From an uncultured Gammaproteobacteria bacterium (GTDB lineage Bacteria; Pseudomonadota; Gammaproteobacteria; UBA9214): a DNA stretch of 64,000 bases. The position numbers were made by a program, and so were the translations under genes. Below are positions 18,948 to 34,347 of this stretch, one piece after another. Location: the NCBI GenBank assembly GCA_963748215.1, contig CAVVHS010000002.1:64001-128000 (forward strand), read 5' to 3'. Each line of letters opens with the position of its first letter. Position 1 is the first letter of the stretch. The notes beneath the pieces were generated by a model, which was given only the letters and a program-made list of their open reading frames with translations, was not told where the DNA came from and searched no databases.

Positions 18948-19053
18948 ACATAACGCCACAAATCACCGGCGAATTGTAGCAACGTATGGCTTGCGGCAAT
19001 CGCCACAAACGAACGTTGCGGTAATTTGTCCATGTGAATTTGCCTTGTTAGCC
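18948..19053 (-). repeat. attC
   Basis: acataac...gttagcc with long stem. Confidence 0.85.
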
Positions 19054-19560
19054 ATTAGCCTTGAATCCTTCGTGGAAAGTTACTGTACCTTGAGGAATAT
19101 GCCCGTCGAAAGACAGGGCAAAGAAGACCTCCTGGGGTACTCCCTCACACACAAGTCCGGACACATTCTTGAATCCGAATTGCCTGTAGTACTCTGGATG
19201 CCCAACGAGGCAACACCCTTGAGCAACCATATCTTTAAGCCTTTTCAGCCCTTCTTCTATCAGGGCTTTACCGATACCCTGTCGTTGATATTCCGGCAAC
19301 ACCGAAACAGGCCCCAGGCCGTACCAGTTTTGTGTGCCGTCCGAATTCTTCAGGTGTGAAAACGCAATATGTCCAACCACACGTCTACCTATTTCTGCAA
19401 CGAGCGATATCGTAAGTGCGGCTGCGACCCGTAGCGCCTCTATGATAAATTGCTCAGTGTGATCACTAATATCAAGGGTCTTAAATGCAGCTACAGTCAC
19501 CTCGGTTATTGCGCTCACATCGGCATCTGTTGCATTCATAATCAAGACCTCCAGATCCAT
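19048..19560 (-). CDS. cassette 21: GNAT acetyltransferase (YhbS-like)
   Basis: LGPVSVLPEYQRQGIGKALI, LVGHPEYYRQFGF. Confidence 0.92.
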   Translation of the reverse strand: MDLEVLIMNATDADVSAITEVTVAAFKTLDISDHTEQFIIEALRVAAALTISLVAEIGRRVVGHIAFSHLKNSDGTQNWYGLGPVSVLPEYQRQGIGKALIEEGLKRLKDMVAQGCCLVGHPEYYRQFGFKNVSGLVCEGVPQEVFFALSFDGHIPQGTVTFHEGFKANG

Positions 19561-19709
19561 GAGTTTCTTCTTTCTCCTCCTTGATGGCTAGACATAATGA
19601 CTTCCCGTTAAAGAGCCGACCTCCGTCCTACGTGGATTAGCAGCGGTGCTGCCAGCGCCGTACTATTCAGGGTCGTTACACCAGCTAAATAACAGGATCG
19701 GAGGTCGAC

Positions 19710-20836
19710 ATGGGAAAATCTAGCATACTTTTTGTCGGAATGGATGTGCACAAGGAGTCCATTGAAATCGCCATTGCGAAGATGGAGCAAACAGCGAAAT
19801 CCGGCGTTATGAAAAGATCGGCGGAACCTTTGATGCCCTCAAGAAAGCCCTGCGCAAGCTGGTCTCGCAGGGTCGTACACTGCATTTTTGTTACGAAGCG
19901 GGACCGTGCGGATATGAGCTGTATCGTTATCTGACGGGCGAGGGGCATGTTTGCGTCGTCGTGGCACCGTCCCTGATCCCGAAGAAACCTGGGGACAAGG
20001 TCAAGACGGATAAACGGGTTGCCGTCCAGCTGGCACGCCAGTTCCGTGCCGGCGAGTTGACGGCCGTGTATGTGCCAGCGCGTGAAGACGAAGCCATCCG
20101 TGATCTGAGCCGGGCACGTGAAGATGCCATGCTGGTCCAGAAGTCGGCACGACAACGGCTCAAATCCTTTCTGCTGCGTCACAATATCCGTTATCAGGGC
20201 AGAGCCAACAGGAAGGAAAAACACCTGCGCTGGCTGGCCGATGAAGTGCGCCTGCCGGACCCGGCCCAACAAGTGGTCTTCCAGGAATACGTCAATACCG
20301 TTACCGATGCGGCGCACCGCATGGCGCGTCTGGTCGGCGAGATCCACCACTACGTCGAAGGCTGGCGCCTCTACCCGGTGGTTAAAGCGTTAATGGCCTT
20401 GCGTGGTGTGCAAATGATCGTCGCCGTTACGGTGATCGCGGAACTCGGCGATCTGACCCGCTTTGAAAACCCGAAACAGCTCATGAACTACCTGGGTCTG
20501 ACGCCGTGCGAATACTCCAGTGGTGAACGGCAACGCCGCGGGGCGATTACCAAGACCGGAAACCGGCATGCCCGGCGTATCCTGATCGAGGCCGCCTGGT
20601 TCTATCGCTACCTGCCGAAGGTGAGTCCTGAAATCCAGAAACGCCAGGAAGACCTGCCCCTGCCAATCCGCGACATCGCCTGGAAGGCGCAGCTGCGGTT
20701 AACAAAACGCTATCGGATCATGAGTCAGCGCGGCAAATCACCCAATGTCACGGTCGTGGCCATTGCACGGGAACTGGCCGGGTTTATGTGGGCCATTGCC
20801 AAGGCCGCTCCACTGTCGAAAGCATCACCGGCCTGA
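19710..20836 (+). pseudogene. IS110-family DEDD transposase, frameshifted
   Basis: VGMDVHK, YEAGPCG, KTDKR(V)A, YSSG, ITKTGN; 1-bp deletion near 19777; fourth DEDD Asp reads Val. Confidence 0.9.
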
Positions 20837-20905
20837 CCGGTTGAAAACACCGACTCAACAACAAGGAGAGGCCTTTCCATGCATTGAGTAACAGACCGAC
20901 AGAGT

Positions 20906-21095
20906 GATTGAGTGTGGGAGTGCGGCCACGGTAAGAAGAACCCTCGAAAACGTTATGTGCCATTCAACGCATCAGCGAATGACGCTCGCACCTAGACCGA
21001 GGCAGCTTCACGGCGTACACAAGTAAGGCGGTATACAACCCGCGCATATCAGCATGACAACCGTCGTTATACTGGCTCCGCTCCCACACCCAATC
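20906..21095 (+). ncRNA. predicted bridge/seek-type guide RNA of the IS
   Basis: Outer stem 20906-20928 with 21073-21095; inner stems cctcg/cgagg, gtgc/gcac, cattc/gaatg, gcgg/ccgc; loops contain aacgtta, ccta and catatcag. Confidence 0.65.
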
Positions 21096-21169
21096 GCTTT
21101 GGCGATGCCGCCATGCCAGTTTGCTCAGGATCGAGTTCGTGTGCCTGCTTGACAACGGGAAGTCATATC

Positions 21170-21240
21170 AACGTTGGAACACTGCCGTCGCCGGAGGAGC
21201 GAAAGCGACGGTGGCGATCGGCAGGAGTGATTTGTTATGC
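21170..21240 (-). repeat. attC (TA-type family), interrupted by IS after GTT
   Basis: aacgttggaacactgccgtcgcc..ggcgatcggcaggagtgatttgttatgc. Confidence 0.88.
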
Positions 21241-21450
21241 GGCGTTAACTTCAATGAATTCGCTGACTGAGGAGGGATGAGGAGCTGGTTCACCAGCTTC
21301 AATTAGACCCTCAATATGAAACTCCATGGCGTCCTTAATCAGCTCCATAACTTCTTCGCGGGTTTCGGCCGCGGCAATACAGCGAGGTAAATCCGGCACA
21401 TGCGCACCATACCCGGATTCGCCATTTTCGATAACTACCATATATTTCAT
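21235..21450 (-). CDS. hicB: cassette 20: HicB-like antitoxin (short)
   Basis: YMVVIE..YGAHVPDLPRCIAAAETREEVMELIKDAMEFHIEGL. Confidence 0.9.
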   Translation of the reverse strand: MKYMVVIENGESGYGAHVPDLPRCIAAAETREEVMELIKDAMEFHIEGLIEAGEPAPHPSSVSEFIEVNAA

Positions 21451-21467
21451 GATATTTTCCCTCGCAT

Positions 21468-21652
21468 CTATTTTAGACCAGCCTGCTTGAGGATGCTCGA
21501 TAATGTACCTGGTGGTATGCCGGCACTTGGCTTTCCCGATACAGTGAACGTCACTTCTATCTCAGGATGCCGGTATTGACGATGGCTCCCGTTCATCCTG
21601 GTCTGCTTCCAGACATCCTTTTCAATCAGTTTATCAGTTCCTTGACCTTCAC
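21468..21652 (-). pseudogene. hicA: cassette 20: HicA toxin, frameshifted
   Basis: VKVKELI/(K)LIEKDVW..RMNGSHRQYRHP..IPPGTLSSILKQAGLK; one A missing near 21630. Confidence 0.8.
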
Positions 21653-21673
21653 CAAATGTTCCCTATCTAAGCC

Positions 21674-21729
21674 GCAGAACGGCGCGGTTCACACGCCGGA
21701 GTAGCCGGTGTGTGAACCGTTTGTTCGAC
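21674..21729 (-). repeat. attC
   Basis: gcagaac..cggttcacac..gtgtgaaccg..gttcgac. Confidence 0.75.
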
Positions 21730-21753
21730 CACAATTCAAGTATGTACCATTGG

Positions 21754-22419
21754 TCAGAAAACCAGTGTTTTCCACGTCTTTCCAAAGTCCATGCTTTCGA
21801 CTCGTACAGCCTTGCCATTCCGCAACGCCTTGGAGTTGACCACAAACGATACATGGCCATCTGAATTCACTCGGATATCCTTGAAGTGCGGTTCGCGCCC
21901 ACCCAGGTAATCGTACTGGCGGCAGTCCACATTTCCTTTAGGTTTACAGTGATCCGGCTTGTCGGCTGGAACAATCAAATCCTCCGGAAGAGAAGTGGGA
22001 TACCATCCTCGAAAACTGCCACAGGAATCGAAGCTCACATTCACTCCGTTCCCGATCCAGACCAGGATACGATCATCAACGACAAGGTAGTTTCGGCGTT
22101 CACGCTCTGCCAATTCGGCGGCACTCTTGGAACCAATCGCACCGCCGTTTCCGAGCGAGACCCATCCCGCATCTTGTGTCTTGTGTGCGGGAGAGTTGCG
22201 AGTTTGTAACGAGGAGCATTGGACGCGAAACACCTCGCCGGTGTAATGAAGAGGAAGATTCTCAAAATACCGAACAAGTTTGAGTCGGAGTTGAGCATTC
22301 TCATAAATCATGGCTTCGTCGAGTTTCCGCGTGCTCGGGCTACACGCGAAAACCACCACAACCGCAAGCATTCCACCTACCAACCAGAGCAACTTTCGTA
22401 TTGACACCGACTTTTCCAA
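21754..22419 (-). CDS. cassette 19: hypothetical lipoprotein
   Basis: VFAC lipobox-like; SMDFGKTW Asp-box at C-terminus. Confidence 0.75.
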   Translation of the reverse strand: MEKSVSIRKLLWLVGGMLAVVVVFACSPSTRKLDEAMIYENAQLRLKLVRYFENLPLHYTGEVFRVQCSSLQTRNSPAHKTQDAGWVSLGNGGAIGSKSAAELAERERRNYLVVDDRILVWIGNGVNVSFDSCGSFRGWYPTSLPEDLIVPADKPDHCKPKGNVDCRQYDYLGGREPHFKDIRVNSDGHVSFVVNSKALRNGKAVRVESMDFGKTWKTLVF

Positions 22420-33384: not shown

Positions 33385-34347
33385 TTGAAAAAGCCAAGAC
33401 TACTGGATCAGGTGCGTTTGTCTATAAGACGAAAGCATTACAGTCATCGGACCGAGCAGTCCTATATCTACTGGATTCGTTACTACATTCGTTTCAACAA
33501 GCTGCGTCATCCTAGCGAGATGCGTGAGCCCGAAGTCAGGCATTTTCTCGATCACCTGGCCGTGAACCGCAAGGTCTCGGCTTCCACCCAGAATCAGGCG
33601 CTGTGCGCCATCCTGTATTTATATCGCGAAGTCCTGGGCAAGCCACTCGGTATGATAGAGGGTGTCACGCGCGCCCGCCATTCGAAGTACCTGCCGGTGG
33701 TCCTGACCCGCCACGAGGTGGCGGCCGTTCTCGGTCAGATGGAAGGTGTGTGCCATTTGGTGGCCTCGCTGATCTATGGCACCGGCATGCGTGTCACTGA
33801 AGCGGTGACGCTTCGCATTACTGATATCGACTTCGATTACGCACAGATCACCGTGCGCAGTGGCAAGGGTGACAAGGACCGGGTAACTATGCTGCCAGAA
33901 AGCCTGCGTCACCCGCTCTGGGAACACCTGGCAACGGTCCGCGCCATGCATAACGGCGACCTGGACAATGGCTACGGTTACACCTGGCTGCCTTATGCAC
34001 TGGACAGGAAATATCCCAACGCGGAACGTGAGTGAATCTGGCAATACGCGTTCCCGTCGACCTGCATTTCGCCCGACCGCAGTGACGGTGTCCTGCGGCG
34101 CTTTCACATGTCACCACGCACGCTGCAAAAGGCCATGCGCGAGGCCGTCCGGCGTGCCGGGATCAGCAAGCGAGCCGGCCCGCACACCCTGCGGCACACT
34201 TTCGCTACGCACCTGATCGAGGATGGCTACGACATCCGTACCGTACAGGAACTGCTCGGCCACAAGAATGTACGCACCACGCAGATCTACACCCACGTGC
34301 TGAACCGCGGCGGTCGTAGGGTGCGCAGCCCGCTGGATGGGAGCTAA
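33385..34347 (+). pseudogene. intI: integron integrase with one nonsense codon
   Basis: YSHRTEQSY, SASTQNQAL, GMRVTE, GKGDKDR, insert [43 protein letters not shown]; TGA at 34033-34035 where Trp is conserved. Confidence 0.95.

Follow-up and report, generated by a model that had tools for sequence, protein, structure and literature searches.

Insertion sequences (ISs) of the IS1111 group were recently reported to choose their targets with an RNA of their own. According to Siddiquee et al. 2024 (PMC11187229), the seekRNA of such an element comes from the non-coding region downstream of the transposase gene (tnp), co-purifies with the transposase and can be reprogrammed; the seekRNAs described there, including those of the attC-targeting ISKpn4, ISPst6 and ISPa25, carry a match to the top strand of the target 5′ of a match to the bottom strand. 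For 93% of IS1111 elements, Durrant et al. 2024 (PMC11208160) predicted a bridge RNA located in the right end. A long non-coding region downstream of tnp is described as a trait of the group (PMC11187229), and the range given for its subterminal inverted repeats is 7-17 bp (PMC11208160). Here we analysed 64,000 nt of DNA from an uncultured gammaproteobacterium (positions 64,001 to 128,000 of contig CAVVHS010000002.1, assembly GCA_963748215.1), hereafter the window, which contains a 1580-bp insertion. We are highly confident that this is an IS1111-group element lying in the attC of an integron and carrying its own targeting guide RNA in its 3′ part. Since the seekRNAs of the attC-targeting ISKpn4, ISPst6 and ISPa25 were published in 2024 (PMC11187229), the principle is not new and the element is a further instance, not a new system. 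The parts of the element are as follows.

19590-21169, plus strand: whole IS1111-group insertion sequence, 1580 bp (boundaries from the sequence; the ends recur in relatives)
19590-19596, plus strand: left terminal extension AGACATA, 7 nt, outside the inverted repeat (read from the sequence; AGAC near-invariant in relatives)
19597-19609, plus strand: left subterminal inverted repeat, 13 nt (100% complementary to 21154-21166)
21154-21169, plus strand: right subterminal inverted repeat (21154-21166) plus a 3-nt extension, ATC (inverted-repeat search, ends of relatives)
20837-21169, plus strand: 3′ non-coding region holding the guide RNA, 333 nt (sequence, alignment of relatives)

The assignment to the IS1111 group rests on an IS110-type DEDD transposase with PF01548 (DEDD_Tnp_IS110, E 1.9e-8) and PF02371 (Transposase_20, E 1.5e-23), both above their cut-offs, on perfectly complementary 13-nt inverted repeats that are subterminal, on a downstream non-coding region of 333 nt against 120 nt upstream of tnp, and on an insertion free of target duplication. 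An earlier interpretation made from the letters of the window (the sequence-only reading) had proposed an IS110/IS1111-type element with a YEAGPCG-type transposase, which the domains, repeats and long 3′ region bear out; the protein contains CYEAGPCGY. The transposase gene is not intact, and the frame break makes this a defective copy, which is no argument against membership of the group. The boundary of the IS is ambiguous by 1 nt, owing to an A shared with the target, and a genome search found a single copy in the 3.5-Mb genome.

The guide RNA is laid out in the 3′ region as an outer stem with two arms:

20903-21098, plus strand: scaffold of the guide RNA, with P1 (20903-20926 and 21075-21098) as its outer stem (covariation)
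20935-21009, plus strand: target-binding arm, 75 nt, with helices GAAG with CTTC, CCTCG with CGAGG and GTGC with GCTC around an internal loop (covariation)
20948-20955, plus strand: right-target guide AAACGTTA, complementary to the top strand in IS orientation, T/AACGTT, across the insertion point (marked by a slash here and below)
20989-20997, plus strand: left-target guide CACCTA (20989-20994), then GAC, assigned by identity to the left flank running into AGAC, the first bases of the IS
21011-21066, plus strand: donor-binding arm, with helix CGGCG with CGTCG, an internal loop and hairpin GCGG with CCGC (covariation)
21016-21027, plus strand: TACACAAGTAAG, the donor loop on its 5′ strand, where a second donor guide would be expected by symmetry
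21045-21052, plus strand: donor guide CATATCAG, with the letters of the circle junction (CATATC from the right end of the IS, AG from the left)

Relatives came from a scan of one genome per species that gave 432 among 599 candidate stretches, of which the best 80 (52-78% protein identity) were taken. A script found repeat-bounded ends in 47 of these 80 loci; five were dropped as false-looking (L031, L039, L045, L064, L076), leaving 42. Their ends are strongly conserved (left, AGAC-NNN-ATG...; right, ...CAT-NNN). From 41 distinct 3′ regions an RNA alignment of 39 distinct sequences was made, omitting L070 and L079 as near-duplicates of L065 and L075. Standard base pairs fill 88.5% of the 1550 cells of the proposed helices, compared with 32.8-43.8% when the partners are slid by 1-3 columns, and 30 of the 41 pairs show changes on both sides. 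In stem P1 all 19 pairs do so, with 87.3% of cells paired. No shuffle in 500 reached the observed value on four of five covariation measures; on the fifth, the number of further pair types, 79 did. The outer stem also emerges from an inverted-repeat search of the window (arms 20897-20928 and 21073-21104, 32 nt, 78% complementary) and from the minimum-free-energy (MFE) fold, in line with the stem that had been proposed by eye. A closing helix CCTCG with CGAGG, proposed at the same time, holds across the family, whereas its companion GTGC with GCAC (GCAC at 20988-20991) is an alternative register specific to the window: by family covariation, GTGC at 20957-20960 pairs with 20984-20987, which is GCTC in the window. 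A covariance model (R1) built from 38 relatives, with the window excluded, found one match in the window and that same one in the whole genome (20933-21068, plus strand, full length, 120 bits, E 1e-28). The sequence-only reading had put forward such a model as one check of its proposal, together with a comparison of homologues' insertion sites with their loops. The model from homologues alone recovers the RNA of the window, and where homologues have another target, their loop letters differ to match.

These loop letters were scored against the insertion sites in 31 of the 39 loci, the others having no flank or being gapped. In a scan of every RNA column against every flank position, columns 55-59 stood out as complementary to the right flank, from position +6 back to +2, with 78-97% of loci agreeing (z 5.2-9.2). 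On its own site the 8-nt right guide pairs, on average, at 7.26 of 8 positions, compared with 4.99 of 8 on the sites of other loci, and none of 2000 permutations attained the observed value; the misses were L071 (2/8, its ends probably being mis-set) and L015, L016, L032 and L067 (6/8 each). In the window, AAACGTTA pairs with T/AACGTT(G) at 7 of 8 positions. On the other side, column 107 carries the base of left-flank position -2 in 71% of loci and column 108 that of position -1 in 97%, and the 6-nt left guide averages 3.84 of 6 on its own site against 3.06 of 6 on others (0/2000 permutations). The left-flank match is followed in the target loop by AGA(C), with TAGA near-invariant in the alignment; these are the first bases of the IS. 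AACGTTA itself occurs 10 times on the two strands of the window, where 3.65 are expected and 1 shuffle in 100 reaches that number, so that one occurrence in 333 nt is unlikely to be due to chance; the real support is the covariation.

In the second arm, the 3′ strand of the loop reads as the joined ends of the element. Columns 189 and 190 repeat the last two bases of the IS (right-end positions -2 and -1) in all 39 sequences, and column 188 repeats position -3 in 82%; relatives whose elements end in ACC, GAG or AAG, where the window has ATC, carry the matching letters in their donor guides. This upholds the earlier observation that the second arm matches the circle junction. The three motifs on which that observation and its companions were founded (aacgtta at 20949-20955, ccta at 20991-20994, catatcag at 21045-21052) are all present at these positions. 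Column 188 also revealed that right-end position -3 and left-end position +6 of the IS are complementary (A-T, G-C) in 90% of the 39 relatives, which may reflect shared ancestry or a pairing across the circle junction that has gone unrecognised. In the opposite strand of the donor loop, two weak hints of a guide to the left end (GTC opposite GAC in many relatives, where the window has GTA, and G opposite C at +5) were considered and rejected as unproven.

The site of insertion was reconstructed from both flanks:

21170-21240, minus strand: larger part of the HicB cassette's attC, split by the IS (R″ GCATAAC ... AACGTT; attC reconstruction)
19583-19589, minus strand: start of the GNAT cassette, AGCC..., the remaining part of the split R′ box (sequence, attC reconstruction)
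19047-19053: R″ of the GNAT cassette's own attC, GGCTAAC, complementary to the restored R′ box

Removal of 19590-21169 by script yields ...AACGTT/AGCC... in cassette orientation (minus strand) as part of a continuous attC, confirming that excision restores a GTT/AGCC box complementary to the GGCTAAC of the GNAT cassette. The restored attC is 78 nt long and its bottom strand folds as an imperfect hairpin in which GGCTAAC pairs with GTTATGC. The tnp gene is on the plus strand and the cassette genes are on the minus strand. Since the AGCC side belongs to the GNAT cassette and the restored attC folds, the IS lies antisense within the HicB cassette's attC, in the R′ box at its 3′ end. Integron integrase crosses over at G/TT, 1-2 nt from the point of insertion. 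In runs X2, X4 and X5, contigs of the same metagenomes contain 93-94% identical attC sites joined to different neighbours, and one of these contigs has an uninterrupted ...GCCT/AACGTT, the perfect target of the guide. A lone attC-like site (CCCTAAC ... GTTAGAGC, minus strand, locus L091 at about 1190-1265; contig C4 of G000 near 100186) lies just downstream of the genome's other IS110-family transposase gene and contains CCTAACGTT, an ideal target of the window guide.

The flanks of the relatives can be grouped into classes. Right flanks begin with AAC in 15 of the 31 usable loci (AACGC 8, AACGT 4, AACGA 2, AACAG 1) and with other sequences, e.g. AGGGT or AGCAG, in the remaining 16. In cassette orientation the AAC class reads ...CGTT/A(G/T)(G/C/A)..., where the brackets give alternative bases, which is the form of an R′ box. 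A strict MFE criterion proved too strict for detecting attC hairpins at these sites and was replaced by a local inverted-repeat score with 200 shuffles. An imperfect inverted repeat beside the insertion point, reached by at most 10 of 200 shuffles, was found in 10 of the 15 AAC-class loci with enough flank (L001, L008, L011, L012, L025, L032, L033, L037, L038, L082); L002 was borderline (12/200), and at L005, L009, L023 and L040 the score detected no such repeat.

The one certain attC relative is L082, an unnamed IS110-family element of an IncC plasmid of Klebsiella pneumoniae (NZ_CP095763.1, 28578-30132). In the last attC of a class 1 integron, flanked by arr-3 and qacEdelta1, it occupies exactly the boundary of R′ and the 3′-conserved segment. 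Like its own marine relatives (L086-L089), it shares with the window element the type of ends (here AGACATA...CAT-ACC), the insertion at GTT/A of an R′ box and the RNA layout with matching guides; unlike the window element, to which it is about 55% identical in protein, it has an extra hairpin in the donor arm and an intact transposase. Those marine relatives are 70-80% identical to L082 and occupy replicons of Pseudoalteromonas, Alteromonas and Vibrio, likewise at GTT/A sites. L082 is the sole copy among 72,556 plasmid records, and a megablast search of E. coli genomes gave no match. An intact IS1111 element of marine type stands beside blaNDM-1 in a clinical class 1 integron.

Other relatives have other targets. 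L057, L058, L049 and L050 (53-54% identity) are all inserted at CTT/AGCAGGCTGCTGAA, and the site in L057 and L058 is the foot of a roughly 140-nt palindrome ending ...CAGCAGCCTGTTAGGG, with matching guides; this is a different repeated hairpin target and may be attC-like as well. A clade from Nitrospirota and delta-type metagenome-assembled genomes (L015-L021, L019, L027, L035) has repeats ATGGTTGACAGT and is inserted at sites of the type TT/AGGGT, with guides that covary, e.g. GACCCTA, CCACCTA and GGAAACTA. In L019, L027 and L035 the non-coding region is 130 nt longer.

Several observations weigh against the interpretation as a guide RNA programmed for attC. Helix P3 has one T-T mismatch in the window, and the MFE fold is weak in energy (z -1.97, with 4 of 100 shuffles folding as well). 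A scan of 19000-22000 against Rfam at E up to 1 returned no family. The shuffle controls overstate significance, since the relatives share ancestry, a caveat mitigated by the 17 different 5-mers found among the 31 loci. The proposal that the target loop is programmed for the attC box is upheld in that both sides of the loop are matched and the guides covary with the flanks, but the left guide of the window agrees with its actual flank at CT/A only (3 of 6 positions): its CCTA fits the canonical GTTAGG, as the sequence-only reading had noted, not the GTTAGCC of the window. No second donor guide, to the left end of the IS, could be assigned in the donor loop by regular expression, by eye or by column scan, as the sequence-only reading had also found by eye; complementarity or covariation with the left end was nowhere consistent, and left ends vary too little among the relatives. 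The transposase is split by a single frame break, within about 19775-19793 as located by tblastn with the reading frames of relatives. Contigs of four runs from two studies have no insertion or deletion in that region, i.e. they share the break, and none of them contains an excision joint across the IS. Lastly, the guide RNA is known here from DNA, the sequencing runs listed with the stretch including no RNA run.

This last point would also suit a reading in which the short non-coding matches are features of the DNA, either protein-binding sites or remnants of earlier target copies, and not RNA guides at all. The motifs are indeed only 7-8 nt long, and AACGTT is palindromic, which leaves the sense of the strand ambiguous in the window itself. 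However, the helices around the motifs retain their pairing by compensatory changes in 30 of 41 pairs, which points to RNA. Relatives with non-palindromic targets fix the sense, since their 5′ segment is invariably complementary to the right flank and their 3′ segment repeats the left one, and the published seekRNA and bridge RNA experiments concern this same family. We therefore consider a DNA-level origin of the matches to be extremely improbable, and an encoded guide RNA to account for them. A separate matter is whether the element belongs strictly to the published IS1111-attC group (ISPst6, ISPa21, ISKpn4) and shares its insertion point. The window element agrees with that group in its attC target and family architecture, and in lying antisense to the cassettes, as the members do to cassette transcription in the account in PMC3001079 of the group of Tetu & Holmes 2008. 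It differs in position, for the insertion described in the text of that source is near the 5′ end of attC, whereas that of the window is in the R′ box at the 3′ end, inside GTT/AG. For ISKpn4, ISPst6 and ISPa25, the table of a review (PMC13604230, a secondary source) places the insertion point 9 nt before a GTTAG. None of the named attC elements ISKpn4, ISPa21 and ISPst6 appeared in the tblastn lists of relatives. Strict membership is unlikely.

As a tentative alternative, possible though somewhat doubtful, the window element, its gammaproteobacterial relatives at 72-78% identity, relatives of Vicinamibacterales type and the marine and clinical clade of L082 could be attC lineages apart from ISKpn4, ISPst6 and ISPa25. 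Such lineages would have a target loop programmed for the R′ box (...NNCGTT/ARR), with variable letters tracking the attC spacer of the host, plus left flank and AGAC as a handshake or excision guide. They may target the R′ box 1-2 nt from the cut of IntI, with 5-6 variable guide letters that follow AACGTT, ATCGTT, GGCGTT or GACGTT. In every case the target loop spells, on its 3′ strand, the left flank followed by AGAC, which together are the left junction after insertion; IS1111 RNAs may accordingly contain a handshake or excision guide of their own in place of a separate left-end donor guide. By analogy with the handshake guides of IS621, the AGAC of the target loop might do the work of a guide to the left end.

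The copy in the window is probably stranded and immobile, because its transposase is frameshifted and the genome holds no second copy. The two pieces of the gene are:

19710-19793, plus strand: N-terminal piece of the transposase, about 25 codons, with GMDVHK (tblastn of intact relatives, frame 1, IS positions 121-204)
19766-20836, plus strand: main piece of the transposase in another frame, with CYEAGPCGY (frame 3, IS positions 183-1244; PF01548, PF02371)

It would nevertheless still be mobile if programmed frameshifting bypassed the break, or if another transposase served the element in trans. The RNA region and both ends of the IS are intact and the break is stable across samples, as such a mechanism would have it. 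Set against this, the eight relatives examined have the transposase in one uninterrupted reading frame (about 369-384 codons, retrieved from 7 of the 8; the exception was L015), the sole other IS110-family gene of the genome, of 329 codons, is 28% identical, and the single copy in the genome and the lack of an excision joint in the four runs offer no sign of movement. Continued mobility is, on this evidence, very unlikely, and a stranded copy is the better description. In one contig of run X2, 80 nt are skipped between the RNA and the right repeat (21068 to 21149); the shorter side of this joint is just 25 letters and the joint is unreliable.

On the favoured interpretation, of an IS1111-group element that encodes its own targeting RNA, the IS would have entered an attC of a chromosomal integron at the 3′ end, splitting the R′ box GTT/AGCC between T and A and lying antisense to the cassettes. 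The non-coding region downstream of tnp would encode a seekRNA or bridge RNA of about 130-200 nt, with an outer stem and two arms. The 5′ strand of the target arm, AAACGTTA, is predicted to base-pair with one DNA strand across the insertion point into the attC (T/AACGTT). The 3′ strand, CACCTA, which continues as GAC, the start of the IS, is the same-strand sequence of the other side (canonical ...CCT/A) and so would pair with the opposite strand. The 3′ strand of the donor arm, CATATCAG, is the sequence of the joined IS ends and would accordingly pair with the excised circle. In a complex with this RNA, the DEDD transposase would hold the circle next to its target and swap strands at the A common to both, giving a simple insertion with no duplication. 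That the RNA is made, bound by the transposase and directs recombination is what we infer from published work on ISEc11, ISKpn4 and IS621; the anatomy of the element, the structure of its RNA and the covariation of guides with flanks and with ends are direct observations of the present analysis.

The described systems differ in how closely they match this picture. ISKpn4, ISPst6 and ISPa25 resemble the window element in having a DEDD transposase, a guide RNA downstream of tnp, a top-strand match followed by a bottom-strand match in one arm and an attC target; the target arm of the window is 75 nt long, against the 82-86 nt given for the short seekRNAs in PMC11187229. ISEc11 and ISSso6, from Shigella and E. 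coli plasmids, are IS1111-group elements with 53% protein identity over 96% of the query, and the seekRNA of ISEc11 has experimental support in PMC11187229; unlike the window element, they target a short linear sequence and not attC. The bridge RNA of IS621 likewise has a target and a donor loop, each of which reads both strands around a shared core (PMC11208160; Hiraizumi et al. 2024, PMC11208158), and the non-cognate handshake positions that PMC11208158 describes beside a guide resemble the AGAC after the left-target guide of the window. IS621, however, carries its RNA in the left end, upstream of tnp, with the order of the guides reversed, whereas the RNA of the window is downstream; its core is CT instead of a single shared A, its subterminal repeats are merely 2-3 bp, and its second donor guide has no clear counterpart in the window. 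Group IIC-attC introns also home to attC by RNA-DNA pairing and lie antisense to cassettes, as stated in PMC3001079, but, as retroelements that rely on a ribozyme and a reverse transcriptase, they share neither homology nor mechanism with the IS.

The surrounding array and the ends of the IS contain the following further features.

19048-19560, minus strand: GNAT acetyltransferase cassette gene, downstream of the insertion (open reading frame and profile search)
21235-21450, minus strand: cassette gene for a HicB-like antitoxin, on the upstream side of the split attC (open reading frame and profile search)
33400-34338, plus strand: integron integrase gene with one in-frame TGA (TIGR02249, 443.7 bits, above cut-off)
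21149-21154, plus strand: TTGACA, candidate -35 of a junction promoter (kept in nearly all relatives, directly before the right repeat)
19593-19598, plus strand: CATAAT, candidate -10 of a promoter that would exist only at the circle junction, Pjunc (read from the sequence)

Many cassette ends of the form ...CGTTA... lie on the minus strand between about 13.8 kb and 32.7 kb. Given its in-frame TGA, the integrase gene (intI) may be a pseudogene. Across the joined ends of the IS, TTGACA and CATAAT would make a circle-only promoter with a spacer of 17-18 nt; such a Pjunc is reportedly known for ISEc11. A promoter and terminator scan of 19500-21300 found a single promoter-like site, which lies outside the IS, but no terminator, a yield not above that of shuffled sequence.

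RNA-guided target choice by IS1111 elements, attC hunters included, has been in print since 2024, and in principle the window element adds little to it. Its relatives nevertheless form a natural data set of 39 distinct RNAs and 17 flank 5-mers, from which both target guides and one donor guide can be read by covariation alone, for an RNA family that has no Rfam entry. For integrons, the crossover box at the 3′ end of attC is a possible second route of attack. An insertion in the R′ box would weld two cassettes together, here HicAB and the GNAT gene, and block their excision; if intI is a pseudogene, the array may have become fixed together with the stranded IS. The same type of element has appeared once in a clinical class 1 integron, and the covariance model could help annotators to spot such insertions.

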